Notes: generated by a model from the sequence alone, not told the origin. Shown: positions 8,611 through 64,000, counted from the first letter of the stretch. The stretch is DNA of 64,000 nucleotides from Seison nebaliae (GCA_023231475.1 JALJEE010001766.1:1-64000), one strand, 5' to 3'. Made by a program: numbers and translations.

Positions 8611-10827
8611 ATGACTACAGCTGTGTCTGTAGCAGTTGCAGATAAGAAAATGACTACAAACGAAATTGTACAGAGTAAAATATCAACATCCTTAGAATTG
8701 TCTAGATTATTCTATGTGTTACATCAACGGTCCAACACAATAACAACACCGACCCACTCGCCAATCACTGTGACAGACAAGGACATGGATCAGACGAGTG
8801 AGATAAAACCTTCCCAAATCAATATAATTCCATCGAACACATCCTCTATAGCCCAAGTGAAAAAAGAACCCAATTCTCCCAAACCCACGAGATCTCCCCG
8901 TCAAACCCAACATCCGCCGAATGAGAGATTTGTGGTGGACGATAATGTCGTTCCTTCCAAATCGTATCATCCAATCTTATCCAATTCTGTCATATTGGCC
9001 AACGGTATTGTAGGTGGAGGGAAATCCAAACGGAAAATTGATGACACTTCCAATAGACCTGTGAATTTTGAGAAAGAAAAAAAACCGTTCATGAATACCA
9101 CGGTCAAATGCACCGACTCCAAACAACAACAACAACAACTCCAAGAAGAGAAGACGATAGCGAAAATAAAGAATTTGAGGTCGATCGTATCGTCTGGTAT
9201 TCAGACGATAGATAAAATGTTATTAACATCATTTATGAATAAGAGAATCGCATCTTTCGATATTTCCGGTGAGAAATGTTTATGGTTCAATCAATTGATG
9301 GAAGAGTTCACTTTCACTTTCGATGACGTTGAGAATTTACATGTAAATCTTATAGAATGTTCCGTTCTTCAACTTCTCTTTCTCGCATTAACCAAATCGA
9401 ACGGTTTATCCAATTACAAGTTGATACGATTATCCGATGCTTATCGAATTTTATCTTACAAGAATCTTATCTTACAATCACCACAACCACAAATCAAGGA
9501 AACTGTTGAATCGTCAAAAGATAAATTTCTGATTTATCATGACGTTTTTGGTTTCAAGACAATCGGTGTCGTCTCTCTCAATTTGTATTCGAGTGACAAC
9601 TCGCCATGTATCAGATGTGAGAAATGTCTCGAATATTTTGCTCCACCTGATTTCATCATTCATTCTCATCAACAGGATTTCACTTTTATTTGTTGGGGAT
9701 TCCACACAAAAAATTGGAGACGTTACATTTATCTCCAGAACCATAACGAAGCGTACAATTTCTTTCAGATGACATTGTTGAAACAAAGATTCGATATCAC
9801 TTCTCCATTGAATAGCAACATCTCGACCGATTTGAGTAAATCGAATGTTTCCAATTTGAATAATATTCTCACGAATTCTGTTAAAAGAAATGTCAATCTA
9901 TCCAATATTAGTGAAAAAGAGAAGAAGACGAAAGAGACGAAGGAGAATAAAATTGAAGTTAATCAAAGTGTGTTGACTGAACCAACTCAAACTCTATCCA
10001 TTCCAATCATTACCACTCAACAAATACCGTCGACAACAAATGAGACTGCATTAACAACAGAAAACATGATGAGAAACAGTGACTTTCCCATTGAAAATCA
10101 AATGCAATATATTGATGAATATAATAAGCAAATGATTAAGAATAAATTGAAAGCGATTTTACAAGTTCAATATAATTTGAGTCAACGTCGGACAGCTGAA
10201 TTATCGAATCAGCAGAACAATATTGTTATTCCCATACCCGTTCATCCGACTTACACATCTATCAGTATGCCAATGGGAAATGAAATGATTCCAAACACCA
10301 TCCAAGTAACAACGAACCAACCAATAATGTTCGAGATGGCTCCCGCTCAAACTCAAATGCCTAATCCGGATATGAATAATTTGAAGAATGTGAATAACGT
10401 TAATGAAGCGACTGATTATCCTGAAGTGAAACGTTCCCGATTATCTGATCAGAGATATACTACTAATAATAAAATTTCAGGAATGCATTATTTGACAACT
10501 GAGGAATTTGAAAGTTCGTTGTTTATTATTCTTGATATATCTTATTCATTTATTTTTCAGACACGAATGATATTTATGGAATAATGTTGAGTGCAATTGA
10601 GAATTTAGTGAAAGATCTTCCAGCTAAAGAATATCTTGCCAATCTATTCTTGCGATTGTCAAATGTTGAACAATCGAAAGAACGTGAATCACTCCGACAG
10701 CAAAATAAATTACTCCAAGTTATTTTTTCATTTTTATTCGTCTCAATTTATTTAGTAGACAATTAAAAAATTGAATGAAGATTATGCGGAACTTGTTGAG
10801 GAGGTTAATCGATCAAAAATTAAATGA
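8611..10827 (+). CDS. ski: Ski/Sno family transcriptional corepressor; introns 10514-10560 and 10719-10758
   Basis: DHD-like RIASFDISGEKCL; SMAD4-binding domain YHDVFG...PCIRCEKCLEYFAPPDFIIHSH...CWGFHTKNWRRYI; C-terminal coiled coil. Confidence 0.85.
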
Positions 10828-11633
10828 GAAACTTCGACAATCAATTATCGAGTTACGTAGAAGGAGTTATCTTGTACAATTCGAGCAATCTACAATTGAC
10901 GATATTTATTTTTAATATTTAACTCTTCCTGCCAAATATTTTGGTGATGATCTGGTGAAAAATATTTATTTGCAAAGTTCTTGGCAGTATATGTTGTAAA
11001 TCTTTTTTAAATTTCCAAACAAAACAAACAGAACAAACCCTTAAAAAGTGTTTAAACTCGGTGTTTCAAATATTTCTATTTTATCACAATATTTATTTTA
11101 ACCTCCAACTATATGATGTTCTGTCTTAATGTGACTATAAAAAGAATTGGGCTTACATTATATCATGTACATTGTACAGTCAGATTAGACAATGAAAAAA
11201 AAGTTATTAAAGAAATTTTATACGTACGAACAATTTTGGGGAAATGAATATTGGGTAAAATATTAATTTCCATACTTTCTTTCTATTACCGTTCTATTCA
11301 TTTTACGATTCATCAAGCATAGTCTAATTATTTAAGTTTTCTTTTTTATTTTTCTTTTATTTCAACTTTATATTTCGCCCATTCTAATCATTGTATGAAG
11401 TCACAATAATTTATTGATTAAAAAATTTTATTGAATTTCTAGTTATCGTTGTTAATTGGAACAAAATAAAATTTATTAAAAATCAATTTGAAGATGAATG
11501 AAGAATTAGAATGAAGTTAAAATTTCTTGAAAGTAATTTAAAAATGAGAGTTTCAAAATGAGAATAAAATATGAGTTCGCAATTCGATTTCTTTCGATTA
11601 GTACAAACGGAAAAAACTGAACAACGAAATTAA

Positions 11634-13295
11634 TTATAACGAATTTTTAATGTTCTCTGAGAAATTATTAAATAATTCATCAGCTTTCTTCATGTCGCCT
11701 CGTGCCAGAATCAGGAATGCGATCGTATCCAGATGATTGGAAGAATTCCTTTGGAAGAATTGTTCGATTTGTTCATTTGAAATGAAATTCTTCAATTCAT
11801 CGAAAGTGCTTTTTAGTATGTTGTCGCTATTGTTTTGTTGTAAGATGGTTGTGGCGATTGGGGTAATGGTGGGAGTGGAAATTGTCGACGACGTAGATGA
11901 TGAGGATGAAATTGTTGTTAAAAGATTCTTCTTATCAGTTTTTGATTGATTGGAATTAGATGATGATGATGATGACGACGATGATGATGATGATGAAGAT
12001 GATGTAGGTTGTTGTTGAACATTTTCTTGTTCATTATTATTTTCGTCGTTAGGTACAATAAATATTTTTTCAGCTAATTTCACTTCATAGCGACAAAGTG
12101 GACAATAATATCTACAATGGGATACCGCTTGTTGTTCGGACAATGTAAAACATCGTCTTCTCCATTCGTCCATACATCGATAACAAAACAAATGTCCACA
12201 AGGTTCCAATCGTAATTCTTTTCTTCTCTCCACACAAATTTTACATAAATCGAATGTTTGTCCGATAGCATCATAAATTCCCTCATCCATCGACGGCGAA
12301 ATAATTGTCCGTTGTTGACGGTTTGTGTCATTGATGAGTTGTAACGTCCGTCGCAAAACATCGTTCAATGAGATGTCGGTTGAATTAATTCCTTTCGGAT
12401 AACGATATAAATTGCAACGACTTCCTTCCACTAATGCTTCTAATAATGTCTTGTTAGTGGGAATGGTTTGGAGAATGTCTCCGTTTCGGTTGACGTAACC
12501 AATAGCCCACTCTCCCAATCGAGTACATGATAATCGATAAACGAAAGAATATGGTTCTTTACCATTCAAAATCTCTTTCACCTCATCATAAGTGATATAA
12601 GCACAATAAGCTGGATGAGTAATCGTCAATAATCGCCATGTCCGAATGAGATGAGACCATGGCTGATAGAGTCGAACGAAAATATCGAACTCAAATATCG
12701 ATACTTGATAATTCATAGTTATGTCGATACTTCGTCTCAATGCTTCACTATCGATTGCCGTTAACCGATTATCACCATCCTGATAGACGTGTCGTTCCAA
12801 AACGTTGAAGAAAGTTTTCCATGGAACGATGATGGTATTCTCACCAAAATTGTCTCTCCAAAATTCTTGAGCATTTATCCGAACCATTTTAAATTGATGG
12901 AAATTGAAGATCATTTGACCATTCTCTTCTGTGTAGAAGGAACGAAGTTCATGAAGAATATGAGAGAAGATGACGGATAATCGAACGATATCAGCTCGAA
13001 TCGAATTACGATCATTTCCACCTTTCTCTCGACATAATTGTATCGACGATTTCGCCTTTACCATCAAATTAGTGATGACGAATGATAAATAATTCAATTC
13101 CACATAATTACTTGCATCAATTGTAATCGCTGATAAGATCTTCGATATCTCAGGTAACAGATCACAGATGTAGGGAGGACATGGTTTCAATCCCAATTTC
13201 GTCGTCAATATCGTCAGAGTATTCAACTTCTTCAATAATTTACTGACATGACTCCAATCATATGGTGGTGCTGGTGATGATTTATTGGAATCCAT
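11634..13295 (-). CDS. cbl: E3 ubiquitin ligase Cbl (TKB + RING + probable UBA-like tail); coding region intronless
   Basis: PPYICDLLP, SIFEFDIFVRLYQPW, THPAYCAYITYDEVK, YRLSCTRLGEWAIGYV, TFDLCKIC...EPCGHLFC...CPLCR. Confidence 0.95.
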   Translation of the reverse strand: MDSNKSSPAPPYDWSHVSKLLKKLNTLTILTTKLGLKPCPPYICDLLPEISKILSAITIDASNYVELNYLSFVITNLMVKAKSSIQLCREKGGNDRNSIRADIVRLSVIFSHILHELRSFYTEENGQMIFNFHQFKMVRINAQEFWRDNFGENTIIVPWKTFFNVLERHVYQDGDNRLTAIDSEALRRSIDITMNYQVSIFEFDIFVRLYQPWSHLIRTWRLLTITHPAYCAYITYDEVKEILNGKEPYSFVYRLSCTRLGEWAIGYVNRNGDILQTIPTNKTLLEALVEGSRCNLYRYPKGINSTDISLNDVLRRTLQLINDTNRQQRTIISPSMDEGIYDAIGQTFDLCKICVERRKELRLEPCGHLFCYRCMDEWRRRCFTLSEQQAVSHCRYYCPLCRYEVKLAEKIFIVPNDENNNEQENVQQQPTSSSSSSSSSSSSSSSNSNQSKTDKKNLLTTISSSSSTSSTISTPTITPIATTILQQNNSDNILKSTFDELKNFISNEQIEQFFQRNSSNHLDTIAFLILARGDMKKADELFNNFSENIKNSL

Positions 13296-18217: not shown

Positions 18218-19652
18218 ATGAATCTTTCTCTTTTTCCCATTTTCTATCTGATTTATCAATTGACATTGACCGATTTGGTTTGTATTTATATCTCGAAGAG
18301 AACTCCAATTCTTAACATTCGTCCTTAGGTCGATGCTGGTGCAGTTCCGTTGTCGCGTACAAATATCGATATAATTTTAAGTTTTCCTTTTTTTCCCTCT
18401 CTATCTCTAATTTTCCATCTGATTGTTTGATCTGATTCATCTCAAATTTATGAATGATTTGTAGAAGACTATGAATATGTGCTTGTTAATTTCTATGCGA
18501 ATTGGTGTCGATTTAGTCAGATGTTGGAACCGGTTTTCGATGAGGCAGCCGATAAATTTGCGGGGAAGAAAGCATTATTAGCGAAAGTAGATTGTGATAC
18601 AGAAAGTTACTAATTTCTTTCTCTCATTATTAATTTTGTTCTTTTTAGCTGAAATTTCCAATCGATTTCGTGTAAATAAATATCCAACATTGAAAATATT
18701 TAGAAATGGAGAAATGGCAAAGAAAGAGTATCGAGGACAGAGAACTGTCGATGCATTTGTAGAATTTGTGAATAAGGAAACAATCGATCCGATCAGCTAT
18801 GTAACTTCATTGAATGATATTGTCTCTCCTGATGTTACTCATTTTAATATGTTCTCTCAATCATTTTCTTTGTTCTAGTTGAAGAAAGGAAAGATCATTG
18901 CATATGTAGAAAACACAAACACACCAGCTGCTATTACATTCAAGAAAATTTCACATATCCTCCGAGATGATTGTCACACATTCATGGTATCATCACCATT
19001 GAGTGATCCTTATAGGAAGAATGGAGATACGATCATTTTCCAACCGAAGAAAACGTCGGCCATTAGCAACAATGTCGTTTACAGCGGATCATTTCAGGAT
19101 TTCAATCAATTGAAAGATTGGGCATATTATTTATGTGTACCACTGGTGAGAGAGATAACATTCGAAAATGCTGAAGGTCTCACTGAAGAAGGATTACCAT
19201 TTCTCATCTTATTTCATCATCTTGACGATACGAATATCGTGAAAAACTATGAAAAAATGGTTTCGAGTGAATTGGTCGAAGAACGAAGACTCATCAATAT
19301 CCTTCATGCAGATGGAACAAAATTCTCTCATCCACTCATGCATTTAGGGAAGACTACTCGAGATTTACCATTAATAGCAATCGACTCATTCCGTCATATG
19401 TATCTATTTCCAGATATAAAAAGATTAACAGTTCCTGGCGAATTGAAACGATTCATTCAAGATCTTCATTCAGGAAAGCTCCATCGCGAATTTCATCATG
19501 GACCCGATCCAGTGACGGAAGCACCACAAAAACAATTGGCTGGAGGTCAAGCACCATCGTCTAAGAAAGTGAAATCTAAAGATCCGCCAGAATCATCATT
19601 CGTCTTATTGGCACCATCACCAACCAGATATAGTTTCCGCGATGAATTGTGA
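18218..19652 (+). CDS. ERp44: ER resident protein 44; introns 18278-18328, 18381-18464, 18606-18648, 18834-18878
   Basis: Signal peptide, FYANWCRFS motif, VREITFENAEGLTEEGLPFLILF, DSFRHMY, C-terminal RDEL. Confidence 0.95.
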
Positions 19653-20273: not shown

Positions 20274-21766
20274 TTAATTAATAATAAAATTCTTTTCAGG
20301 AACTTTCTTCAAATTCTCACTGTTTGATCGACGATGAATTCTTTTTTGGACTAACTGATATTTCAATTCACAATAATTTGATACCAACTGAATGAAATAG
20401 ACAAAATAGAATTAGATATGAAATATTCAAACGAAAACTTCTAATTCGATAGCACGCTGATTTGTTAATGGATATGTTGGACGACATAAACTATTGAGAA
20501 TAGCGACATGTCTCAGATCGAAATAATATTTGGCATATACACTGGATGGGACGTCAATATTGAATTGAATCGCTTCTAAATAGAATCGTTCCATTTCATT
20601 CATATTCGGAACGGTGAGATTCCGTACGATTTGACAGAAGTCCACATTCCACACAGCCTGATCTTCCCACACTTTCGATGCGAGTAAAACAGAAGCTAAA
20701 AGAATTCTCCTCCAATTGAATTGTGTCAAACGGACAGTGGTATATAAGAGTAATCGTTCCAAATAGACTAGCGTGACTATTCCACATTCAGGAGTAAGTT
20801 GTGCATTCTCAAACAATAAAACGAGAAAATAATAAATGGTATTGCCTGTGGGAATATAATATTTTCCATTATTCGAACAGGAAGTATTGACATGGAGCGG
20901 ATGTATTCGTTCATCGAAAATATCATAATTCTCATCAATGTTCATCATTAATGTAGTTGATAATAAATTTGATGGTTTCCACAATTTATCTTTTTCAATG
21001 TGTGACTGAATAGCAATCGACACACAAATGAGTAGAGTTCGCATATTCGGTAATGAAACTGAATTCTCATCGACAAATATGGTCGATGTCGATGAGGAAG
21101 GAAGTCGTTCCAATTTATTGAAATTAATTCGATTTTTCAGTATCAAATGTTTATTCTGAAAATATAATAGAATATTTATCAATAAGTAAAAGACAAACTT
21201 TCGACTTTAATGAATCGAAATTTTCTAAAAGAAATTAAAAGTGAATGGAATTCCCAAAAAAAATTAACTTAATTTTCGGAAAAATAATGGTTCGTCCAAC
21301 GGTTTGTCAACCGGATTCGTTCCTTTCACCAAATCATCATCATTTAAATAAATGTCGGTTATATGAGAAACGGAAAAGGAATCAAGGTTCGGCAATTTTA
21401 TCGGATCACATCCAATCGATATAGTATTTGAACTAGAAATTATTTGGTAAGTTTGTGATTTCTGTAATTGTGGTTTACTAACAAAATAAGTAAATTAGAG
21501 GATAATTAATTATTTAAACTTTCTAAAATGAACTTTACAGATTTTAAAAAGAATGGTTTCGGAATACAGCACGCAAATAATGGGAGGTTGTACTGTGAGG
21601 AACTGTTGGACAAATATCGATATTCTTTTCGACTCTTTGGACTATTGTCATCATCATCATCCTCCTCCTCTTCGTCTTCTTCATTATCTGTGAAACATTT
21701 ATCTTTACCTAATTTGTTAGTTATTTTATTTTTGTAAATATTAGGAGGATACGACTCTTTCGACAT
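20274..21766 (-). CDS. ccny: Cyclin Y-like; 4 introns
   Basis: AQLTPECGIVTLVYLERLL, LLASKVWEDQAVWNVDFCQI, VPSSVYAKYYFDLR; exons join in frame via GTT..AG introns. Confidence 0.9.
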
Positions 21767-23067: not shown

Positions 23068-23141
23068 GGCCGATTAGCTCAGTTGGTTAGAGCGTCGTGC
23101 TAATAACGCGAATGTCGTGGGTTCGATCCCCACATTGGCCA
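23068..23141 (+). tRNA. tRNA-Ile (AAT)
   Basis: GGCCGAT/ATTGGCC acceptor stem, TAGCTCAGTTGG A box, CT-AAT-AA anticodon loop, GTTCGATCC B box, downstream T run. Confidence 0.96.
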
Positions 23142-23205: not shown

Positions 23206-23309
23206 GCAGTGGTGGCCGAGTGGTTAAGGCGACTGACTAGAATTTCTAAGCGATTGTGCTAGTGATCAGTTGGGATCTTCCCGCACAGGTTCGAATCCTG
23301 TCCACTGCG
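23206..23309 (+). tRNA. tRNA-Ser (AGA) with a 22-nt intron at 23243-23264
   Basis: GCAGTGG/CCACTGC acceptor stem, G discriminator, long variable arm GGGATCTTCCC, GTTCGAATCC, anticodon AGA at 23239-23241, insert at position 37/38. Confidence 0.93.
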
Positions 23310-23826: not shown

Positions 23827-24489
23827 ATGTCTCACAAAGTGTCAATAAAAGACAGTATGACGTCGGAATTACTAATGGAACTACCAGCACCGGAACGAAT
23901 AGCATTCCTTGCTGTCGATTTACAGACTTCTCTTTTACAGATTGTTCAAAATTCGGAGAGTATAGTTGAGAATGCTAATCGACTAATAAAAACGGCAGCA
24001 CTTATCGGTTCACCACTGGTAGTAACGGAACAATATCCTGCAAAACTTGGCTACACATCTGAATCGATTGACATCACAACTAAAGAATTAATCATTGAAA
24101 AGACATCATTTAGTGCAGTGGATTCGGAGCAATTATTGAGATTCCTATCAGCTCGACAAATTGATGTTGTTGTACTTTTTGGATTGGAGTCACATATATG
24201 TATCCTACAAACGGCTTTAGCTTTACGACGTTTAAGATATCGAGTTTACGTCATTGCCGATGCTTGTACATCGCGGAACAATGCTGATAGAATGTATTCC
24301 TTCCAAGTTCATCTCCTTTCCCTTCAATCTCCTTTTCTAATTCATTTTTTAAAGAGAATGGAAAAAGTTGGTGTTGTTATAACAACATTCGAAGCATTTG
24401 TTATGGAAATAGTTCGTGATAAGAATCATAATAAATTCAAAGATATTTCTAAACTAATCAAACGAACAGTCGCCTCAACTGGACTATAG
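23827..24489 (+). CDS. isoc: isochorismatase domain-containing protein (ISOC-like); intron 24307-24354
   Basis: AFLAVDLQ, VTEQYPAKLG, EKTSFS, GLESHICILQTA, VIADACTSR, KNHNKFKDI. Confidence 0.9.
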   Translation: MSHKVSIKDSMTSELLMELPAPERIAFLAVDLQTSLLQIVQNSESIVENANRLIKTAALIGSPLVVTEQYPAKLGYTSESIDITTKELIIEKTSFSAVDSEQLLRFLSARQIDVVVLFGLESHICILQTALALRRLRYRVYVIADACTSRNNADRMYSFQVHLLSLQSPFLIHFLKRMEKVGVVITTFEAFVMEIVRDKNHNKFKDISKLIKRTVASTGL

Positions 24490-27223: not shown

Positions 27224-28810
27224 ATGGCACCATCGATGCCAGCAAAACAGACGACATCCAGGAATTTTCAGATGAAAATCTCTTCGATCTTTCGAATGAT
27301 ATTCAATGGAAATTTATTTAGTCGATATGGAAAATTACATATTTTCCTTCCGTTATCCATCTTTCTTCTAGTCGTTGAAGTGCTCGTCAATTTTTTAATA
27401 ATAAACAAAATAAAATGTTAATTTTTCACTAGAATTTTTTCTACTAAATTAATTCTGAATGAAATTTTGGAATAGATACGGAAATTGATTGGAAGGCATA
27501 TATGGATGAGGTTGAAGGTGTTATCAATGGAACTTATAATTACACATTATTAAAAGGCGATACCGGACCATTAGTGTAGTGAAAAAAATTTATTTAATTC
27601 TTTAATTATTTTTCTTCAGTTATCCAGCAGGATTCGTCTACATTTATATGATCCTATATTGGCTGACTGATAAAGGAAAAGATATTCGATGTGCTCAATA
27701 TATATTTCTTTTGATGTATATCGTTTTTCTAACGATCATTATTCGAATTTATTCGAAATCGAAAAAAAATGTTATAAATTTTCTTTTTCCATCAAAATGT
27801 TAATTGAAAAAAGATTCCTATTTTGTTGTTTCTAGCCATCTCATTCACGTCATATCGAATTCATTCTTTATTCGTTTTGAGATTGTTCAATGATAATATT
27901 TCCATGTTATTCTTCTATGCATCATTATTATTGTTGTTGGAAGAGAAATATTTTCTGTCCACAATCATTTACAGGTTTTTTCCTCCATCTTCAATTGTTT
28001 AACCAACTAAATTATTTTTCAGTGTTGCATTGTCAATTAAAATGAATGTTTTGTTATTTGCACCAGCATTGGCATTCGTTACACTCCAAAAAATCGGATA
28101 TATTAAAACCATTTTGTATGGAATTAATGCCATCACATTACAAGTTAATCGGAATTAATTCATTTACAATTTCCAATTGTCAATTATTTCTATACATCAG
28201 TTCATTATGGCATTACCTTTCTTATTAGGAGATTGGAAAGCATATATGAATGGTGCCTTCCAATTTTCAAGAGTTTTCTTTTATAAATGGACCGTCAATT
28301 GGAGATTGATTCCAGAAGAAATATTTCTGTCGAAAACATTCCATTTAATTCTTCTTCAATTACATATGACGTTTCTAGTCATTTATTTCTTGACACGGTT
28401 CAATATATTAAAATCAATCCAACTCAAGTACAAGTTTATCGATTATTGATTATTGGATGAAAATTTATAAATATCAATTTCGTTTTTTTTCCTTCAGATC
28501 TATGAAGAATGATGAAATTTTATCAATTTTTTTCTTAACCAATTTCATCGGTATCACTTTCTGTCGCTCTCTACATTATCAATTCTATGTGTGGTATTAT
28601 CATTCGTTACCATTTCTTCTTGGTCGATTGAAAATCTTTCCAAATTATTTCAAGTTTCTTTTTTTCTCATTCACTTCTACATATCTCCATAGATTTATTC
28701 TCTTGTTGACAATTGAAGTGTGTTGGAATGTTTATCCTTCCACATTCACCTCATCTCTTCTACTTCATTCCGTCCATCTCCTCGTACTATTCCTCAATTT
28801 GGTGAGTTGA
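27224..28810 (+). CDS. alg3: ALG3 alpha-1,3-mannosyltransferase; 7 introns
   Basis: [75 protein letters not shown]. Confidence 0.95.
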
Positions 28811-41852: not shown

Positions 41853-42588
41853 TCAAATCAAATAGAATTTATTTTCGAATAATTGTGGTCGAATTTTCTT
41901 ATATGAAATGATGAATTGATCATCCTTCGACATATTAATTAGATAATCGGATTCTGGGAGATTTTCATCGTTTTCATTGGGATTCCATCGAGTATCGAAA
42001 TTGTTTATATCTTCGTTGCAACGACCAATAATGAATTTATTCAAATTCGGTTTCTCTGTTATCGATAAGAGATCGATTCCTTGTAACATAGATGGAAGAT
42101 GAGATAATACTGAATCTTCAAACATCTTCCCCATGTTAGCTATATATTGCTCCGCATAAATAACTTCTTCACTCGATAATAATTTTATATCAGGATTCTT
42201 CCGATCTATATCGAGAACTCTCGCTGCGAATCTCTCAATTTTCTCCAATCGTTTTCGAAGATATCCACTTAAAATATAATGTAATCTCTGACTTTCTAAT
42301 TGTTTAATTCCCATCTGAATTTTGTAAAAAAATTAATTTTAAGTTTTCTTAATTAAAATATCTAACTGCAAATTCATTTTCATATTTTTTTGTATTAGAA
42401 CCGATTTGTTTTTCGATTGAAGAAATTAATTGTAAAATACAATCAACTGACGTATTGGAATATGGTAATAATTCTGGTGCCATTCGTTCATTGATCCATG
42501 CTCGTTTCATACTGTGATAAACTTGCTCCGAAGTAACACATTCTTCAGTACTCTCCATTTTTTCATTCATATCAACTTCAAGAGACAT
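41853..42588 (-). CDS. gins4: GINS complex subunit Sld5; intron 42315-42366
   Basis: AWINERMAPELLPY, RLHYILSGYLRKRLEKIERF, LLSSEEVIYA. Confidence 0.92.
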
Positions 42589-44586: not shown

Positions 44587-46393
44587 ATGATACATCGATT
44601 GGTTGAGATGAGTAGTCGGCATTCTTTCTTATCTGTGTTTGGGCGAAGGACAAAGAATAATTCGGTGAATAGTTCATTTATAGAATTTGTTTTATTCTCT
44701 TCAAAGACACAAATAGCATCCTTCACTCGTTCGTCATTCTCTTCATTATCCTCATTTGCTAATGAATCGTTGGATCATCTTAATCGTTCGTTGAATGAGG
44801 TCGACCCACAAATTAGTCGATTGATCGATGAAGAGAAACGAAGACAATGTGAGAGTCTCGAATTGATTGCTTCTGAGGTTTTTGTTTAATTTGACGAACT
44901 TTAAATTTTGAAGAATTTTGCAAGTCGCGCTTGTCTCGAAGCAGTTGGCTCTTGCCTTAATAATAAATATGCGGAAGGATATCCTGGTGCTAGGTGATCA
45001 TTTATCTTCTTCCTCTTCTAATATCATTCTTTGTAAAATAGATATTATGGTGGAACGAATGTGGTTGATAAAGTGGAACGTTTATGTCAACAACGAGCAT
45101 TAGATGCATTTGGATTAAATTCGAATGAATGGTTCGTTAATGTTCAACCACTTTCCGGTTCACCTGCAAATTTTGCCGTTTATACGGCACTATTAAAACC
45201 ACATGATCGTCTCATGGGATTGGATTTACCAGATGGTGGACAGTTAACTAATTTCCATATTTGCAATAATTCATTAATTTTTTTAAGTTTAACTCATGGA
45301 TTTATGACGAAGAAAAAACGGATTTCAGCCACTAGTATTTATTTCGAATCGATGCCATATCGTTTGAATGTTGGAAAAAAATTATTTTTTCTTAAATTTT
45401 TAATTTGGTTCTTTATTTATTTTAATTTTCATCAGCCATCAAATGGATTAATCGATTTTGATGCATTATATCGAACGGCGTCATTATTCCGTCCAAAACT
45501 CATCATTGCTGGTACATCTTCATATTCACGATTATTGGATTATCGAATATTTCGTCAAGTTTATCTTATTTGTAGGATTTGATGACAAATACGTTGAATC
45601 AGATTTGTGATGATGTCGGGGCGATTTTGATGGGTGATATGTCCCACATTTCTGGATTGGTTGCTGCCGGTGTAATTCCATCACCGTTCGATTATTGTGA
45701 CGTGGTCACTACCACCACACATAAGACTTTGAGAGGTGTACGATCTGGATTGATTATGGGTAAATTAGAATTTGAGAGACAAATTAATTCGGCCGTATTT
45801 CCCGGTTTGCAAGGAGGTCCTCACATCCATCAGATAGCTGGTGTGGCCGTGGCTTTGGAATTAAGCAAAAGAAAAGATTTTGTCGACTATCAAAAACAAG
45901 TGCTAGCCAATGGGAAACTAATGGAGAAGTTGTTTAAGGAACGAAATTTTAAAATTATCAGTAACGGAACTGATACACATCTCATTTTAATCGATTTACG
46001 ATCACACGATTTGGATGGAGCGAGAGCGGAACTTTTATGTGAGCGAGTGAACATTTCTGTGAATAAGAATACTTGTCCTGGTGACATTTCAGCATTGACA
46101 CCCAGTGGATTAAGATTAGGCACAGCCGCTCTCACTAGTCGAGGTTTTAGTCAAAGTGATTTTATTGCGACTATCGATCTTTTCTGCTCAGCCCTCCAAT
46201 TAGCCAAACAGGCGAAAAAGTCGACAAGTTACAAACAGATTTCGGAAAGAAAAAATTATAAAATATTTATGTTGTAGCTACATTGAAAGAGTATTATTCA
46301 TTTCTTCAAACAAGTGAAATAATGAAGAAGGAGATGCATAATTTAAAAACGGATGTTACTCAATTTGCTTCTACTTTTCCCATGCCTGGTTAG
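44587..46393 (+). CDS. shmt2: serine hydroxymethyltransferase, probably mitochondrial; 6 introns
   Basis: [57 protein letters not shown]; Ser/Arg-rich N-terminal extension. Confidence 0.95.
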
Positions 46394-46903: not shown

Positions 46904-47120
46904 AGAAACTATGATTTCAGATAATCGAAGCTTTGAATGAGAGAAGCCAAACTTTTTATTCTTCTCGAAATTGTTAATAAATTATAATCAATTTACATTA
47001 ATTTCATTTTATTTATGTTTTTTAAATGTTTAAAAAAATTTCTATCAGACGTGTCATTAGATTTCCCTTTCGTCACAACAATTTCATTATCAATTTCGAG
47101 AATTAAATTCTTTTTCCACC

Positions 47121-48564
47121 ATGTCCATCATGGGAAGATTTCTCATACTATTCATTTGTATCAATTTGAATTATTCATTAAATGACACTAATTCTGATGG
47201 GAAACGTTTGTTAGTTCTCGTTGATACGATGACAATTAGAGAAACACATTCCATCATTTTAGATGGTTTACGAGGTTCATTTCCTGCACTTGTTCTTTTT
47301 AAACGATTTTTTTCCATCCAGACGAAGGCTTTGATGTACATGTACAAACGGTGGATGATGAACGATTGCAATTATTGAGATATGGAGAATATTTATATGA
47401 TCATATTCTACTTTTAGCACCATCAGTTGAACGTTCGTCATGAAATTTGTATAATTTCAATTTCATCATTTTTTCATTTTAGAATTCGGCGGCGATTTAT
47501 CCACCGCCACATTAAATCGATTTGTTGATGCTGGAGGAAATATTTTTGTGGCTGCATCAACTGAGATGGGAAATGGAATTCGAGAATTATTGGCAGAAAG
47601 TGGGGTAGAAGTGGATGATGATAATAGTCCATTGATTGATCATAAAAATTTTAATGATAAATTCGATGTTGATGGAAATCATGAGACGATAGAATTATCA
47701 ACAAAAAATTTGAATGATGGGAAAATCATTACGGGAATTGATAAGACGACGAATGGTAAATTATTATTCAAAGGAACAGCATTACAGATGGACAAAGAGA
47801 ATCAATTATTGATCAAGGTTCTCAGCGGTAATGTTGAGAGTTATACAGGAAATAGTGATGGAAGTCGATTGACTGAATATCCACATGCGATTGGTAAGAC
47901 AGCTGCATTAGTTGTTGCATTGCAAGCACGGAACAATGCACGAATGGTAATGATCGGATCTTTAGATTTCTTATCTAATGAATTCATTGAATCATTCCCA
48001 TTAAACGGAAAGATGAGTAATTCTCTCCTCCGATGGACTTTCAAACGATCGGGAGTAATTCGTATGAGACAAGTGTTCCATCGACTCGCTACTGACACTA
48101 ATACAAAATCAATAAAATCTAATGATGCAATACCGTCATCACCTGAAGAATACACGATTAAGGAGTTCGTCCAATTTTATGGCATTCTCGAACAATTCGA
48201 CAAAGGAGAATGGATTCCGATGAATGAGAAACATTCAGTAGCAAATGACCTCCAAATGGAATTCGTTCGAATCGATCCATTCGTTCGACGTAACATGCAA
48301 CCATCAAAAGATGTTAATGGTCGTTTTGAAGTGAAATTCCAAGTGCCTGATGTCTATGGAATTTATACATTCAAAGTCAATCATGAACGATTAGGTTACA
48401 CGAAAATTGATGAGGCACATCGAGTAAAAGTCCGTCCATTGACCCATCGACAATATGAACGATTCATTCCGTCTGCTTATCCATATTATGCTTCAGCCTT
48501 CAGTATGATGATTGGAGTGTATCTTTTATCATTCGTCGTTCTTTATCATTCGGATGAGAAGTAG
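47121..48564 (+). CDS. ddost: oligosaccharyltransferase 48 kDa subunit; 2 introns
   Basis: YGEYLYDHILLLAP, ALQARNNAR, QMEFVRIDPFVR, VPDVYGIYTFKV, YERFIPSAYPYYASAFSMM. Confidence 0.96.
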
Positions 48565-52987: not shown

Positions 52988-55538
52988 ATGTGGAATATTT
53001 GTTGCAATTGGTTAAAACATTTTAGGAAATCGGCAACTGTCGAACCGATTTCAACGAAAACGGTGGTCGAACTACCGAAAATTACCGCAGAAATTAACAT
53101 TGAAAAAAATGAGCTTCCTCTCGTTATCTCGAAACAAATACCGTCGGAGCCATTGAAAGAAGATGAAATGGAAAATGAGAAGAAATATGAATTTCCAACG
53201 GAAAATGGAGAAGTGAAGATAAACGATGAATTAAAAATCGAAACTACAAATGATATCATGTCGACAATTAGCGAAATATCCGACAACGATTATCGACGTA
53301 CAAATTGTTATGTCACATTTTCCGATCAAGGTTGTTCCGGTGCAGTTGATGATGATCATTCTTGTTCGAGATGCACTTTCCAACGAACATCATTGACGAC
53401 ATGTGTTAGTATCTGTTTGAAATTGTTCGATATTCATTCAATATTCATCAGTTATTCATTCGTGACAGTAAATCATCGGAACGGCTAAATACGAAAGAAT
53501 CATCTTTGTTTTTACAGCAATATGATTTCGAATGGATTTGCAGTCGTGTCGGTCTTCCATTAGATATGAATTTTAAAGTTTATTTTTTTCTTTCTCTTCC
53601 GATTCTAATTTCATCAATTTCCAGTGTTCCATTTATAAGGAACTTTCACATGGAATGAATGAGAAAGAATATGACGATTCATTATTTCTAATTTGTTTCC
53701 ACCGAATTATGGAAATTATCAATAATCAGAACACGAACAACAGTTTACTTAAAGGATATACATCTATATTGAAGAGAATTCTTCCCCAAATGAACGAAGA
53801 TGAAAGACAACATTATTTGGAAGTGATCGATGATATGACGGGGAAAGGTGATTGGAAAGAAATCGATAATTATTTATTAGAGAATCGTAAACTTTGGTTA
53901 CCCGTCTACTTGCGAGTTGTTTTAAATGATAATTTTTTTTGGATCTCTCACATCCAACGATCATTGTTGAATTGTTATGAGAATACTAATAATGGAAATA
54001 CAAGATTTCATTTAATAAAAAATGTCGAGTTTGAGAGTGAGCAATTGAAAGAGTATGGAATTATTGTTTCTATCGAAATCTTGGGAGATTTCATGTTCGT
54101 AAGTCATTCGAATGGTTGGTTGATGGTATGGAGAGGTTGGCGTCATCGTTCCACTCCGAAGAAATATAGAAAAACTAGTTATGGTAAATTGATCGAAGTG
54201 ATTGATGAGATTAATGAATTACAAAATGATTCATTACAATCCACCAATACCATATCGAGTGAAGCACAGAAATTAGATCAAAATATCAAAGGATGGGAAT
54301 GTGTAGAGCGAATCAATTTGACATCATGGTTCCCCGACGACAAGGTGGTCATATCTCACTTATCAGCCACGTCATCATTAGCAGAATATTACAACTATAA
54401 ATTCGGAACCTCAATTTTGGCATTACAAAACGATTTGATTCCTACGTCGTTACTCGCTGCCTTAACTGAAGTGAAGTACACGAATCAAAGATTATTCTTC
54501 TGGTTACCAATTTTCAATAATGAGATTGGAAAGAATCTTCAGAACTTCCATTCAGATGTGTTTTATTGTTTGAAGAAGAATGATAAGAAGAACGATTCGG
54601 GATTTATCGAACCTGTAAATATGGTGAATCAATCGTTGATGAATAAACCGATACAAATAATTTTAGATAAATCGATTGATATTATAGATATGAAATTAAA
54701 TGAAGATTATCTTATTTTACGTATAAGAAATGCGTTGAAAAAATCATTATGCTTCCAAATCTATTCAATTCCAAATATTATCGAATCGTTAATATCTCAC
54801 CAAAACAACAACAACAATAATATTGATAATAATATTATGAATTTAGCTCAATTTCCTTTATTACAAAAAATTGAAACTCAACAAAAATTCCTTTTATTCT
54901 ATTACAATTATTTCATGTTCACTTGTCATGACGCTTCTCATGAATCATATCAAACATCAGCTGATAAAGATAATCGATTGACCATCTACAACATCAAAGA
55001 AGGAACTCCAGTTCTCGTTCTGAAAAAACAAGCGATATCAACTGCAGCGACTTTATTATCTAAAACTAATAAATCGAATAATAACAATGTATCAAACAAA
55101 TCGAATTGCACATATAAAAGTGTTGAGATTCGCAGTAACGAAACGTTACCGATGGAAGCGAAAGATCTAGCATTCGGAATTCAAACTTATCTAGATAAAT
55201 CGCCATCAAACTATTTCATGGGGATTCATTCGGGAATATTTTGCCTCATCGATTTCTCATATCGAATCAAAACCTTAAGTGTTCTACACTCCACATTGAA
55301 AACGTTAAATCGTTCGAAACACAAACAATATCATTCAACTCTCTCAAACGATAATCATAACAGTGAGGACGACCCGTCGAATTTGAAGAACCTGGTGAAA
55401 CAATGCACGTTCATTCGTGGACCGATTACGGAGACAATGGATGAAAATAAGTCAAAGATGATTTTTAAAATAATCGATTCTCATCCAACATTGATAGTGA
55501 TCGATGAAAGAATTGATGTTTTTTCTAATTTCATATAG
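52988..55538 (+). CDS. uncharacterised protein of about 818 aa; introns 53405-53451 and 53578-53624
   Basis: Two ORF-track ORFs join in frame through two 47-nt GTT..AG introns; no family recognised. Confidence 0.7.
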
Positions 55539-56500: not shown

Positions 56501-56593
56501 TCATTCATATATTTTATTTAATAAAATTTAATAAAAAACAAATTCCTTTTTTTTGGTGAGATTGTGACTTTAAAATAGTTACTTATTGATTAA

Positions 56594-57106
56594 TTAATAT
56601 CGATATTTTGTTGAATAGTCTTTAGGAGAAATTACTAGACCGCGACCTTTTCTCGCTCCTCGAAAAACCGTTTCAGTAATATCGATCAATTCTTGTGTAT
56701 TAGTTAATGCCCAATTGATTTTATTGTTATTTCCAGTGCCCAAATCGATCATGATATGTTTATTCCGATAGAAGAACATGACAGTACATGGATCATACAA
56801 TTCATACATTTTATTGAAATCAGGAACTTCACTGATATCCACTAAATAGATGACTCCGAAATTTTTAATTCGATCGTTCACTTTGTATAAAGTCTACAGA
56901 AGTAAGAGATAGATATATAAGATAAAATAAAGAATAATAATGAACCGTCTAACAAAAAATTCTTTTCATTCACTAACTTCATCCATTTGCATACAGGTCG
57001 GATCCCAATCATGTCCAAATCGAATGATGACAACTCGATCCTCTTCCGAAAGAATTGCTTGATCCACCTCCCAACCACTGTGCAAATGATGTAACATGTA
57101 CGACAT
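56594..57106 (-). CDS. txnl4a: U5 snRNP protein Dim1; intron 56894-56977
   Basis: MSYMLHHLHSGWEVDQAILSEEDRVVIIRFGHDWDPTC...GRGLVISPKDYSTKYRY. Confidence 0.97.
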
Positions 57107-57297: not shown

Positions 57298-57754
57298 TTA
57301 AGGGAGAAGCATTCGAATCATATTCACTTCTCGTTTCCGACGAGTGGGAGGAGCAGTGGTCGTGGTCGTTTTCGTTTTATGACCACTACCTCCCGTTTTT
57401 GATGCGATGACAATAGCAATGATTGCAATAATTATAAGGACGACCGCTACAATCACTATCCACATTTTCACATTTTTCCACCACATCTTCCGACGAACAC
57501 GTGACGCATTCGATCGGAATTTAACAGCTCCATTCTGCATGTCATCTGCACGGTTCTGTAGATCGTCCAATTGATCTCCACGTTCGATCACTTTGTTGAT
57601 ATTATTCGCCATAATTCCTTTCACCTAATCCCAATCACATTAATCTCTATATAAACGATAATCGAACCTGATCAACTTGATTCTTCATTTGTTCTAATTG
57701 GTCGTTGCCTCCTGATTGTCCAGTTGGAGCAGTTCCATAACCATTCGGTTCCAT
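57298..57754 (-). CDS. vamp: synaptobrevin/VAMP R-SNARE with a luminal tail; intron 57625-57667
   Basis: QVDQ|VKGIMANNINKVIERGDQLDDLQ...RRKMWWKNVKM followed by a TM helix. Confidence 0.92.
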
Positions 57755-58192: not shown

Positions 58193-59721
58193 TTAAATGC
58201 CTTTCTTTCTCATTAAATTCTTTCCAACTTCCTCATATTCTTTCTTCGTCACCCACATCTTTGTAAACGAGCCTAACGAAGCCAAAATTGAACCACTAAA
58301 AGAAATTCATAAAAAAAAATTAAAATATTGTAAAATATGTTTAAAATCGAAAACATTTTTAAAAATATTTGAAAATTGAAAAAATGGATTAAAATTTTTC
58401 AAAAAAACTATAAAAATCATAAGAGAAAAAATTAAAAATTTCAATATACAAACCCAATCCAAGCAGATGAAGCACGATCTCTGGAAGCATGTATTTTGAG
58501 TTTTATATCTTTCGGAGCAATTTGTTTCAATTCCTCCATTAATCGATCAGGGAAATTTTTCATGATAGTTGTGCCGCCAGCTAGTATGATGGATTGATAG
58601 AGATTCTTCCTCAAATCAAGATCGCACATGGCGACTGAATATCTGAGAATTTCATGTACACCGGGTGATTCATCGCCGATTAACGTTGGATTGAATAAAA
58701 CTTCTGGTGCGTTATAAAAAGATGTATTTATCTAAAATTTTTTACAATGATTTTAATCTGGAATAATTGAAAATTAACATCGATAATATTTCCGTCAGGT
58801 AACTTGTATTTTAATGATTCTTTACTTTCCATATTTTTAAATGATGATGTTTGTACTAAACACACATTCTAATAAATAAAAACAACAATAATAACAATAA
58901 TGATGATAATGAGAGGAACTTCTTTAATTTGTCGAACTAAATCGAATTCTGCTGTGGAATTAAATTTATATCCTTCTTTTCTTAAAAGATATCGAAAATA
59001 TTTGGTGACTTCACGTCCAGCTATATCATTCCGACATATACAATGATTTAAAGAGAATCCTTCAACTATCGGCACAGCATGTGTTACACCTTCTCCTGAA
59101 TCAAGTACGACGCCACTCGTCTTTCCTGACGCATATCTGATGAGAAGAATTTTTAAAATGGAAATTTGACAAATGAGAACGAACAATACGAGAACTGCTT
59201 GCATGGCAGACATCATTGCCGGAACAGTGAAAGTTTCGAAGAAGATTTCTGTTATTTTTTCAGCATTTCGTTGAGGATTCCAAGGTGTTTCTGTTATCAA
59301 TACCGGATGTTCAATCGGATTAACATTTAGATTCTCTTTAGAGAACATGTAACGCCAAATCTTCTCCATATCGTCCCAATTCGTTACGACTCCACAATCC
59401 ATTGGATTGTTCATTCTTAATAATCCTCGGAATGTTTCAGCTTTAGATCCGATAAAATTCTCTTTATCCACCGACGTCGTCATTGCACGTTGATATTTTG
59501 GATAACCGATACTATAAAGAAAATTTCCATTGATCGAATTAGATTAAGAGAATGGAAACTAATTTAATTCTTGATATTTCGGTTTATCATCACCGGCAAA
59601 ACCGGCTTTCAATGTTCCAGTTCCCTTTAAATTATCATAAGTTTTTCTAAAACGGAAATAAAATCATTTTAACATTATCGATAACGATCGGTTGATTCAA
59701 TATCAATTTATCACCATCCAT
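58193..59721 (-). CDS. actr1: actin-related protein 1 (centractin), divergent; 6 introns
   Basis: [68 protein letters not shown] (Arp1-type), WIG|GSILASL. Confidence 0.88.
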
Positions 59722-60082: not shown

Positions 60083-60746
60083 TTACAAATTTATACCTGT
60101 TAAAGTTTCATTTAAAGTGCCATTTTCGTGGAGTTGTTTGAGAATGTCCAATCCTCCAATTAATTGAGTATTCACGTAGATTTGGGGATAGGTCGGCCAA
60201 TCGGAATAAGTTTTCAATCCTTGACGCACTTCCTCATTCTCCAGTATATTGAAATGAGACCATTGGATAGGGTACTGAGAGAGAAGTTGGACCATTTCTC
60301 TACTGAATTTACACAAAGGTTGTTCGGGTGTTCCTTTCATGAAAATTTTTACTTTATCCGAACTGATTAATTTGAAGAGATAATTCTCATGTAAATTTTT
60401 TAATTTACTCACGAGAGGACCCATTTTGTCTCCTTCGAATCTCCCAACCTCTTTTCCATTCTAATAATGAATTGATTTTTATATTTATAAAAGAATTGAA
60501 AAAAACTTGAAAAACGACATATGTTGGGAGAAGTTTCAAATGGATTTTCTTAAAAATTTCGCGGAACTTCTCATTAACCTTCAATTCCAATAAATAAACT
60601 GTGATGTTCGGATACAGATGGCTCAAACCGTTCAATTGGTCCATGTTTTCAGCACGATGGCAAATTTTCATGATATTGATTCCAGTTTTTTCCGTCAACT
60701 CCGTCCAATCGTTTATATCCTCATATTTCTCAACTTTTATCAACAT
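60083..60746 (-). CDS. glrx3: glutaredoxin-3/PICOT-like (degenerate Trx domain + one monothiol Grx domain); intron 60461-60506
   Basis: FMKGTPEQPLCKFSR, VRQGLKTYSDWPTYPQIYV, LIGGLDI. Confidence 0.85.
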
Positions 60747-60851
60747 TCTCGGAAAATGAATTAAAATAATTTGTCAATAAAACTTATTTTTTGTAATGTA
60801 AAATTTTATTTGAAAAACAAATTTTTTTTCAGCAAAAAATTAAACAAATTT

Positions 60852-63238
60852 TTAAGAGTCATTTTCAGTTTTCCGAGTCTTATTAATTCCAAGTTTTAGC
60901 TTCTCCACAAAAAATTTAATTTTAGCATCGACCACTTTTCTCTTCTTTTTCATTTCTATAAATTTCACTATTAACAATTCGATGAATTCGAAGAATGTTA
61001 CGAGACTCATTCCAATACATAATCCCATTGAACCACCGATATTACTGAGCACTGTAACGAATGTTAATGCATTTCGTTGAGTGTTCCTCTCATAGAAAGC
61101 GTCGCCAAATTTGAATTGCAATTGAATAATTTTTTCACTAGAACAAATAGGAAAATGAAATTCGTTCAAGAAATTATCAATTCATTAACTGATAATTGTT
61201 GTTGTTCAAACATAAGTCATTGTGAACTTTCTCATAGGTGAGCGATCCATTTTGGATGAGATTGAAATATCCCATTTCACAAGTCTCTCCTATCTTCTCA
61301 ATTGCATTATACATATCGAACTGGACTTCCGTTGGTTGTATAGACGATTGAAAATCATATATATTTATTTCACATGCTTCCTTACACTCCTTACATTCAT
61401 TCTCCTTAAACTTATCTAACAAATCATTCAGACATTTATATTTCAATGAAAAAAATGAAACGTTTAGTGACCAATTGACAGGAAACTTCCGTAATTGATT
61501 GACAAACATCTTTGCTAGTACTTCCTATAAAATACAATTAAATTTTAAATTAAGTAATAGTTAAATTTTAAAAGACTTGCGTCGAATGTAGCGAAACATT
61601 TGCAGTTCTTTCGGATTCTCTCACATAAACAAGCATGGATACAAGCTGATTTTGTATATTTAGTTTTATTCTGAAACTTTGAAATTTCATCCAATTTTTC
61701 TTCGTTTGCACACACTCCCCAATCTTTCTCTCTCAGATTCTCTCTCTGTTATTAATATTGACGTTTAAATATTGAAGTGGAATGAATGAATTAACTCTCG
61801 TATATGTCATATGAATATCGATTTTGACACCAGACACATACTCCGCTGTACCTTCCATTTGTGGTGCTTCGTTATCATCATGAATATCAAGCACGATTCC
61901 GTCGATCAATTCTCCCTTATCAATTCTCATCGATGGTAAATTGTTGTATTGGAAAGTGTTCCAATAAATCTTTGAGAATGTTCATCAAAATTATTTAAAA
62001 TGAAATTTCCCAACATAAAAATCTTGAATATCTTTATGATATTTTCTTGCATTTCTCAACGTGACACAAATCCCTCTGTCAGTAATTTCTTGTGTGAACA
62101 TCTGATGGAAATGTGATCGTGAGTTTAGAAAAGAAAAATCGAACGTTCCCATTACACAAATAATCATCGACTCGACAATACATTATGAAATCTTCTTCTT
62201 TGGAAATACTTCGACTAACATCGATCAAATTGGTTGGTTCTGTTGAGATATAATTTAATGATTCACAAATTTCTTATTAGACGACAAAGAAGACCTTTCA
62301 CCATTATTTGAGATAAATCATCCAATTCATAGAATGAATTGATATAGGAGAAGACTAACTGATTCTCATCGGAAGAATCATAAGCATTCGAGGAAAAGAT
62401 GTTGATCTGATTTAAAGATGATGATAAATGTTCGTACTTCTCTTCCAAAGGAACCAATCGACATAAATGAGTCCAGAGAACATTCTCGTCGATCTGTTCC
62501 ATTTTTTTCAATATCGAATGTCGTTGAAATAATAAATGATTCTTCTTCTCCTCTAAAACATTAAACACTTTTTCTTGTAATTCTAAAATTTGTTCCGTTT
62601 TCTTTTCCTCTTGACACATTAGTTCAAATTCGTCTAATTTCCAATATATTTGTCCTTTTTCCATAATCAATAATTCGAATAAATAAAGTTCGTAGAAATT
62701 GAGTTGAAATTTCTTCATGAACGATTTGATTATATCTTTCATTTTTCTATTAAATATTCGCCCATGATCATCATCTTTCATATATTTCTTTAGTTTTTCA
62801 TTTGTCAATTCGTCATAATCGTTTTCTGGACAGAACGAAGATATACCCATTTCTCCTTCCGTCATCATTAACGGATTCTCACAATTTTTCGACGCTTCAT
62901 ATAACCGAGACCAGAATTGAAGGTAATTGAAATGTTTCTCTTCTAAATCCAAACGATTATTTCTACTCAATTTTATTCAAACAAATTAATTATGCAGAAA
63001 ATGTTAACATTAAATTATTACAAATTGTGAAGGCGGGAAATGGTGGAATATCATAAATCAATGTCATATCTGATTGTTTTGGATGACTGACATACAAATC
63101 CAAATTGGTCCAAACGTTATACACTAGGAAACATGTACTTCCACAAATGATCAGTAACCATAACGCTTTCTTGATCTTCGATGATTTGATCATCCAGGGA
63201 ATTCCATGAATCGTTGTTCGATCGATAAATTCACTCAT
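60852..63238 (-). CDS. DEG/ENaC (ASIC-like) channel subunit; 8 introns
   Basis: TTIHG motif, FPAFTICN, Cys-rich thumb (YTKSACIHAC...C.C, CKECKEAC), TM2 SNIGGSMGLCIGMSLVTFFEFIE. Confidence 0.92.
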
Positions 63239-63591
63239 TATGTTTATGTTAAACTTTTTTTTTTAAAATTAAATAAATATCTGTATTATAAATTTCTATT
63301 AAACTTTCTGATGATTTTGATTAAGTTAAAGAATTTTTCACTTTTTCAGCAATTGTTTATCGTCGAAACGATTTGGAATGAAGAAGAAAATCAAAAAGTT
63401 TTATAATATCATAAAAATAAACAAAATTTTCATATAAAAATTGACAAAACGAATTTCTTCCACTGAACATCGATTAAGAAAATAAGGAGAAATTAAAATA
63501 TGAAAAGGAAATTGATGAAAATGCAAAAAAATTTTTGTGAGAAAATATTTCTATTTGTTTGTCTGACATTTGATTCATTAAGTTTTTCGAT

Positions 63592-64000
63592 TTAGAAATC
63601 TCCTTCTTCGAATTCTTCTTCGATCATTTTTCTGCTCGACAACTTTCTTTCAGTTGACTTGCCGACCCGTTCGCCGATATATTTGAATGGTGCTGATTTC
63701 GAGTCTTTTCCAAATTGGTTGAAAGCTGTACAAATATATGTTCCTTCGTCATGTTCGTTTCCTCCGATGATTTGTAACCATCCAGTTGCTTCATAATGAT
63801 TGGGTCCTCCTCGAACTAAAGCTGAGACATGATCGTCGTCACCTAGAATGATGGAATGAAAAATGAAATTTGATGGAATATTGAAAATTTACCTGGAAGA
63901 ATAATTGCATTTGGGACTTCATTAATAGAGATGGATTGATCATGAATATCGTTAGTGTAGAACCATTCGATAACTGGAATTGGATTTCCTGTGACTTCAC
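63592..64000 (-). CDS. 3' end of an IGFBP7/Kazald1-like protein (Ig domain); partial
   Basis: EVTGNPIPVIEW...LP|GDDDHVSALVRGGPNHYEATGWLQI...DEGTYICTAFNQFG matches the IGFBP-rP1 Ig-domain pattern. Confidence 0.8.

Follow-up and report, generated by a model that had tools for sequence, protein, structure and literature searches.

The donor (5′ splice site) of Seison nebaliae introns is AN/GUU, where the slash marks the exon-intron boundary, and the introns are short and of the GT-AG kind. This is supported by RNA on one contig. The window is the whole stretch of 64,000 nucleotides (nt) of that contig (GCA_023231475.1 JALJEE010001766.1:1-64000), in which the range 8611..64000 was analyzed. S. 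nebaliae is a small rotifer living on crustaceans. It is a seisonid rotifer (Seisonidea, Rotifera), and the proteins encoded in the window match this species. Its genome is reported to be compact, about 46 Mb with 32% GC (PMC8351084). A sequence-only reading of the window had proposed a rewired donor code in which about 92% of introns begin with GTT. This was borne out: GTT is the start of 33 of the 36 introns seen in RNA and of 59 of the 64 introns in the combined set.

The introns were placed via three-frame translations and mapped NCBI gene models, and an open frame was required throughout. Fifty-nine introns were placed in 19 genes, all frames being open, with the donors GTT (54), GTC (2), GTA (2), and GTG (1). 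The sequence-only reading had given the same four counts, also for 59 introns (in 20 genes), although the membership of the two sets may differ; the introns that it quoted (10514, 18381, 18606, 24307, 44878, 60506, and six in Arp1) were all found. The density is 59 introns per 24 genes (2.5 per gene), or 1.8 per kb of coding DNA. The median length is 48 nt, and 55/59 introns are 36-66 nt long. The acceptors (n = 59) are TAG (32), CAG (20), and AAG (7), with T-rich positions from -10 to -4, while the interiors are U-rich and G-poor (49% T).

The NCBI models for SHMT, ALG3, and Arp1 (SNEBB_009238, SNEBB_009232, and SNEBB_009244) map letter-for-letter to the window with GT-AG introns. The best match of an SHMT exon is SNEBB_009238, the next-best proteins being 57-59% identical; exons of ALG3 and Arp1 match SNEBB_009232 and SNEBB_009244, and a homologue search with Arp1 gave the Seison model as the sole match. 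The coordinates of 28/59 placed introns are identical to those of NCBI model introns. By homology or RNA cover, the model introns 44944, 46144, 60975, 60599 (all GTT), and 60096 (GTA) were discarded as errors, and the model acceptor 44924 was shifted to 44913. Without any correction, GTT begins 29/34 introns of the NCBI models.

The RNA evidence comes from Trinity transcripts that were assembled with genome guidance and aligned by GMAP (table in supplement 2 of PMC8351084). The first 19,906 rows of the table were used; at least 96 rows concern the window's contig and 37 lie in the range. Among the rows listed, 38 gaps of at least 25 nt fall inside the window. Thirty-six are GT-AG, and the other two, in simple repeats without GT-AG, were set aside. 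The 36 RNA junctions comprise 33 GTT, 2 GTC, and 1 GTA. The sequence-only reading had cautioned that some junctions could slide. For 24 of the 36 there is a single possible placement, so these are immovable, and the other 12 can be placed in one way only with GT/GC-AG ends. Thirty-one RNA junctions equal placed introns to the base, and five are extra, all GTT. No placed intron is contradicted by the rows listed; in particular, the check for RNA junctions at other GTA or GTG donors revealed none in conflict with the placed introns. The rows listed leave out 28/59 introns, chiefly in plus-strand genes. In the combined set (59 + 5), GTT begins 59/64 introns (Wilson interval 83-97%). GMAP favours GT-AG ends, but there is no known reason for a bias to T at +3. 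The introns are listed here gene by gene.

10514-10560 and 10719-10758, plus strand: SKI-family gene, both GTT, placed by frame restoration only, no RNA rows.
18278-18328, 18381-18464, 18606-18648, and 18834-18878, plus strand: ERp44, all GTT; the third is RNA-confirmed, and the match to the Pfam thioredoxin profile continues across it without a break.
21533-21478, 21268-21225, 21198-21156, and 20438-20388, minus strand: cyclin gene at 20388..21533 (cyclin domain match; presumably cyclin Y-like), all GTT, 4/4 RNA-confirmed.
24307-24354, plus strand: isochorismatase-domain (ISOC) gene, one in-frame GTT intron of 48 nt, an exact 16-residue insert relative to PDB 2b34.
25174-25126, 25065-25019, and 24931-24874, minus strand: SPC12/SPCS1 (Pfam match), all GTT, 3/3 RNA-confirmed.
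27417..28692, plus strand: ALG3, seven introns, with GTT at 27417, 27771, 27975, 28144, 28434, and 28654 and GTA at 27576; the NCBI model maps exactly and a homologue profile puts each intron first, with margins of just 2-4 bits for 27771 and 28434.
29585-29506 and 29417-29369, minus strand: importin beta, GTT, RNA-confirmed.
34341-34388, 34611-34665, and 34762-34808, plus strand: gene without a Pfam match, GTT, placed by frame restoration only.
36542-36497 and 36356-36296, minus strand: large gene without a Pfam match, GTT, RNA-derived gaps, both coding, outside the 59-intron set.
41672-41615, 41529-41488, and 41438-41394, minus strand: URM1 (Pfam match), GTT, RNA-confirmed.
42315..42366, minus strand: SLD5/GINS4, one GTT intron, RNA-confirmed.
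44672..46277, plus strand: SHMT, seven introns, with GTT at 44672, 44878, 45243, 45370, 45559, and 46228 and GTG, preceded by exonic AG, at 44994; a homologue profile puts six first, 44672 being uncertain.
46682-46639 and 46558-46513, minus strand: spliced transcript without a Pfam match, GTT, RNA-derived gaps in an open frame, outside the 59-intron set.
47275-47321 and 47433-47482, plus strand: OST48/DDOST, GTT, RNA-confirmed, with Pfam contiguity.
53405-53451 and 53578-53624, plus strand: gene without a Pfam match, GTT, placed by frame restoration only.
56894..56977, minus strand: DIM1 (U5-15K), main donor 56977 (GTT, 84 nt) and alternative donor 56945 (GTT, 52 nt), both RNA-derived.
57625..57667, minus strand: synaptobrevin, one GTT intron, RNA-confirmed.
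58296..59673, minus strand: Arp1, six introns with donors 59673, 59559, 59184, 58919, 58778, and 58453, all GTT, all RNA-confirmed.
60461..60506, minus strand: glutaredoxin (GLRX3-like), one GTT intron, RNA-confirmed.
61138..63008, minus strand: DEG/ENaC channel, eight introns, with GTT at 63008, 62144, 62014, 61795, 61461, and 61189 and GTC at 62294 and 61576; five, including both GTC introns, are RNA-confirmed and the other three come from the NCBI model only.
63843..63892, minus strand: Ig-domain gene, one intron with GTA after exonic AG, RNA-confirmed.

Could the excess of GTT simply result from T-rich introns and placement by hand, with no special recognition? The interiors are indeed 49% T, GTT makes up 56% of GT sites within introns (40% in the window), and a single contig was analyzed. 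The observed excess is nevertheless significant against both the window and the intronic shares (p = 2e-16 and 3e-9, respectively), and the RNA junctions by themselves (33/36) depart from 56% with p = 4e-6. T is found in just 19/59 introns at +4 and 14/59 at +5, both under background. For each intron, every GT/GC-AG alternative within 45 nt that preserved the frame was listed. A score blind to positions +3 to +8 picked the same donor in 52/59 introns and a GTT donor in 50/59, while GTT begins 38/110 of the unchosen frame-compatible GT donors. Among the GT sites lying 36-66 nt upstream of used acceptors, 50/71 GTT sites are used vs 5/41 others (p = 1e-9). Thus, an origin of the excess in composition and placement is extremely unlikely.

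Protein homology supports the placement. With profiles of non-Seison homologues, the placed junction ranked first in 13/14 introns of SHMT and ALG3, including the GTG and GTA donors, and the one miss was a near tie within the unconserved N-terminus. Arp1 aligns with the Arp1 of the PDB without gaps at all six junctions. The DIM1 exons join at human residues 43/44, and the whole protein aligns gaplessly to human DIM1. At SPCS1 intron 3 and OST48 intron 2, the Pfam match continues without a break; for URM1 and importin beta, the junctions deviate from the profile by 1-6 positions.

The usual state of +3 is a purine, with GTA or GTG as the customary intron start in animals. The base counts at each donor position are given here as observed vs expected in the 59-intron set. 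At +3, T occurs 54 times (28.9 expected), A 2 (17.5), C 2 (8.6), and G 1 (4.0). In the combined set, a purine at +3 is found in 3/64 donors and GURAG in 0/64. The strongest signal after +3 is A at -2 (43/59 vs 20.5 expected), which was absent from the sequence-only reading. That reading had claimed that -1G and +5G are largely lost. The claim is right for -1G, which is at chance (11 vs 11.1 expected), and too strong for +5G, which is reduced (16/59) yet fourfold over background (4.0 expected, p = 1e-6); +5T is depleted. GT at +5/+6 is found in 11 donors (1.5 expected), and 36/59 donors have neither -1G nor +5G. At +4 there is no preferred base and T is depleted (19 vs 28.9, p = 0.013). The non-GTT donors go with exonic AG (3/9 AG donors vs 2/50 others, p = 0.02); an exonic AG before three of the five had been noted from the sequence and was recounted here. 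The earlier statement that GTAAGT and GTGAGT are missing also stands, as there is no GTRAG donor among the 59. In terms of the two human classes, NN/GURAG accounts for 0/59 donors and AG/GU for 9/59, leaving 50/59 in neither. The hexamer GTTTGT starts 4/59 introns.

Shifted-register human donors reportedly begin with GUU and need +6G/+7U (Roca and Krainer are said to have described them in 2009). Does a canonical U1 bind the GTT donors of Seison in a register shifted by one base, or by bulging a U? A mild enrichment of A at -1 (29 vs 20.1 expected, p = 0.02), its anticorrelation with +5G (p = 0.04), and AA at +4/+5 (11 vs 6.8, p = 0.07) fit this idea. However, the required +6G is present in 2/59 introns, and GT is found at +6/+7 in 0/59 vs 11/59 at +5/+6. 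The mean match in the shifted register (3.7) is lower than in the standard one (4.5) and near that of GTT decoys (3.4). Shifted pairing is therefore very improbable; Seison and the human shifted-register donors both start with GUU, while the +6G/+7U feature is absent in Seison.

These introns are likely to belong to the major spliceosome (U2-type), with a changed +3 base. Since the GURAG consensus is typical of U2-type introns and does not define them, their membership as a variant stands. U12-type introns, expected to have an RTATCCTT donor and a CCTTAAC branch site, were rejected: one intron starts with GTTTCC and CCTTAA occurs in 0/59. As for branch motifs, CTAAY and CTGAC are not enriched, and of 11 motifs only TTCAT exceeds base-shuffled controls (20 vs 9.3). 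Mobile introns of the introner type were also rejected, as the best score of an intron pair is 34 and the shuffled range is 30-38, the overlapping DIM1 forms excepted. A shift to +4U of the kind associated with METTL16 loss does not fit either. Because the changed position is +3 and +4U is depleted, METTL16 loss is not indicated.

What reads the AN/GUU donor? It is likely an altered RNA or protein of the splicing machinery. U1 position 6 faces donor +3. I tentatively favour, at somewhat less than an even chance, a U1 small nuclear RNA (snRNA) with A opposite +3 (ACUAAC for ACUUAC), a compensatory change by analogy with Entamoeba. The predicted 5′ end ACUAAC, in which A replaces the U opposite +3, would read AN/GUU donors, and +3U would be the single extended pair that almost every donor retains. 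The -2A would pair with U10 of U1 and with U5 loop 1. In a minority of donors, U1 and the ACAGA box of U6 would also base-pair with +5G/+6U, and an exonic AG would rescue the few donors other than GUU. The spliceosome would assemble across the intron (intron definition), so that much of the specificity would come from the fixed distance to a YAG acceptor and from an interior rich in U and poor in G. The variant U1 is favoured because U1 has been published for just one other system with +3U, Entamoeba, where it is compensatory, with A opposite +3 and +4 (bioRxiv 10.1101/2022.06.08.495308). The residual donor signal in Seison lies in U1's normal register (-2A and GT at +5/+6), and the depletion of +4U would follow from an unchanged U1 position 5.

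Several observations weigh against a variant U1. No snRNA gene was found in the window, where Rfam searches at gathering and E-value thresholds gave only tRNAs. With ACUAAC, the mean pairing would be just 5.3/9, two of these pairs being the invariant GU, and the gain in pairing is circular because +3U itself is counted. U1 pairing that holds +3U at 92% should also lift the stronger -1G pair above chance. The computed duplex energies of true donors and decoys hardly differ, whichever U1 variant is used (area under the curve, AUC, 0.43-0.61). Among lineages with atypical donors, most have retained a canonical U1. It is kept in the 227 Saccharomycotina genomes with atypical donors described in PMC10581693, and Thecamonas, Mamiellales, Giardia, and Trichomonas are likewise described as having atypical donors and a canonical U1. 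The changes described in those canonical-U1 lineages are at +4 or give GY donors, not at +3.

In another reading, U1 is canonical and +3U is chosen later or by proteins (U6, PRP28/DDX23, U1C, LUC7, SNRNP27K, or PRP8). The residue of U6 that faces +3 (human G44, yeast G50) could form a G-U wobble or be changed from G to A, and relaxed PRP28/DDX23 proofreading or an altered U1C, LUC7, SNRNP27K, or PRP8 could tolerate the loss of +5G and -1G. U6 G44 is described as pairing weakly with a purine at +3 (PMC11732430). In yeast, prp28 alleles improve A3U, A3G, G5A, and G5U reporters, most at +3/+5, and U6-G50A pairs with A3U (PMC3632134); +3 and +5 are the two positions changed in Seison. With C at +3, pairing to U6 is hyperstabilized and step 2 is blocked (PMC11331412), which would explain U over C at +3. 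Donor shifts without snRNA changes are also common (bioRxiv 10.1101/2022.06.08.495308, PMC10581693). Since yeast genetics place the action of PRP28 and U6-G50 at +3 and +5, this route is a serious possibility, well short of an even chance. On the other hand, relaxed proofreading is tolerance and not a 92% preference, and the ACAGA box is invariant in 240 fungal genomes (PMC10581693). Selection by U6 should favour +5G and +4U, yet +5G is found in 16/59 donors and +4U is depleted. DIM1, the sole tri-snRNP protein in the window, shows no gap against its human homologue.

It might also be that U1 is lost, vestigial, or not pairing, and that a ruler of about 48 nt and composition define the intron, with GUU read by U5 loop 1, U6, and PRP8. 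The mean match to canonical U1 is 4.5/9 vs 3.4 in decoys, -1G is at chance, and -2A fits U5 loop 1. About one third of metazoan BUSCO genes are reported missing in S. nebaliae (PMC8351084), Cyanidioschyzon is apparently without U1, and in vitro splicing without U1 is known (PMC11732430). However, the window is not intron-poor, Cyanidioschyzon is a reduced system, and such a loss has no inherent prediction of U at +3. A loss or disuse of U1 is unlikely.

The sequence-only reading had coupled U1 independence with length-driven intron definition, and the latter is supported by the narrow length range (36-66 nt in 55/59) and by the alternative donor of DIM1. This donor (56945) is a GTT inside the 84-nt intron, and its use leaves an intron of 52 nt. 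Ten of the 59 introns have a GTT in their interior at a suitable distance, its use being seen only in DIM1. The alternative DIM1 form reaches a stop after 46 codons; it may be noise, or it may serve autoregulation as an unproductive form.

Other features of the transcripts were recorded. Some Trinity forms keep one intron (SPCS1 introns 1 and 3; Arp1 intron 1, 59625-59673), and similar one-intron variants are found on other contigs of the GMAP table. They may be pre-mRNA or the outcome of inefficient splicing at weak donors. On the minus strand, the transcript alignments of DIM1 (57137) and Arp1 (59737) start exactly at an AG behind a pyrimidine tract, and that of a CP2 gene (17671) starts just past TTTAG. 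In total, 3/15 minus-strand alignments start with AG (p = 0.03). This is a hint of spliced-leader trans-splicing, drawn from the aligned parts of the transcripts.

Some public gene models on this contig are faulty. SNEBB_009244 (58193-63238, minus strand) merges the DEG/ENaC channel, glutaredoxin, and Arp1 into 1189 amino acids, while the RNA rows reveal separate transcripts. SNEBB_009238 (SHMT, 44587-46393, plus strand) misses a conserved stretch and the C-terminus. With a fusion of three genes and false introns, such models may distort gene-loss counts for a phylogenetically important taxon. A transcript at 46371-46920 (minus strand), with two GTT introns and an open frame of 152 codons, overlaps the 3′ end of SHMT in antisense. 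The contigs from sequencing runs that align to the window are unspliced DNA. When sequences from runs X2 and X3 were aligned at 80% likeness, a second copy of the SHMT-OST48 region (45054-47260) was seen in both runs, about 83% identical (75 differences per 438 letters). Its depth is 3-5 vs 27-28, and its exon changes are mostly at every third base. This divergent copy has at least 8 indels within the SHMT intron 46228-46277 and none among those listed in the flanking exon, with 9 gaps in the record.

Elsewhere in the window, a tRNA gene of 104 nt at 23206-23309 (plus strand) was found by Rfam and missed by ARAGORN. Judged by eye from the sequence, it is probably a tRNA-Ser(AGA) interrupted by an intron of some 22 nt; this isotype is seldom known to bear an intron in animals. 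A tRNA-Ile(AAT) at 23068-23141 adjoins it. Frames of a Pao/BEL-type retrotransposon lie at 540-6202 (peptidase A17, reverse transcriptase, and integrase zinc finger), with matching transcript rows.

Is this donor known in other animals? A literature search, light on subscription papers, turned up no description of the donors of Seison and no animal in which GTT dominates; papers in Hydrobiologia on the annotation of Syndermata genomes may bear on the question. In the passages covered, the genome paper of Seison (PMC8351084) treats gene compactness only, and the covered parts of its supplements lack the words intron, splice, and snRNA. A bdelloid SHMT was used to scan metagenomes; none of the 80 loci (38-52% identity) is rotifer-like, and the one translated is intronless. 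The GTT trait may be wider than Seison, reaching other rotifers or acanthocephalans, or AT-rich invertebrates may show a trend of which it is the extreme. Published donor transformations come from intron-poor or unicellular lineages, while Seison is an animal with several introns per gene. The trait bears on the co-evolution of splice sites and snRNAs and on the step, U1 pairing or the transfer to U5/U6, that determines +3. Seison can serve as a test case because its assembly and transcriptome are public, with bdelloids, monogononts, acanthocephalans, and a second Seison lineage as comparators.

Human donors are reported to be NN/GURAG (53.6%) or AG/GU (45.1%) (Parker, Fica, Simpson 2025, PMC11732430). 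Seison shares with these two-class metazoan donors its GT-AG ends, A at -2, some remaining +5G, and an exonic AG where the intronic bases are atypical. It departs from them in having no NN/GURAG and few AG/GU donors. About 92% +3U is thus found in an animal outside both described metazoan classes. The copepod Eurytemora affinis is also an animal with unusual donors, but there the change is at +2 (GA/GG donors) in about 12% of introns, where it misleads gene prediction (PMC5714493), and not at +3 in about 90%. In Saccharomycotina, switches from +4A to +4U are linked to the loss of METTL16/SNRNP27K (Parker et al. 2023, PMC10581693). One donor position changed lineage-wide there as in Seison, while the position is +4 and U1 and U6 are described as invariant. 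Entamoeba resembles Seison in having GT-AG introns with +3U in nearly all of them. Entamoeba is intron-poor with a strict hexamer (GUUUGU, 88-90%) and a co-evolved U1 ACAAAC (bioRxiv 10.1101/2022.06.08.495308, Roy and Bowser). In contrast, Seison is an animal with 2.5 introns per gene, rare GTTTGT (4/59), depleted +4U, and +5G in 16/59 donors, and its variant U1 is a prediction. Thus, Seison donors work like those of Entamoeba at +3, yet are outside that system.

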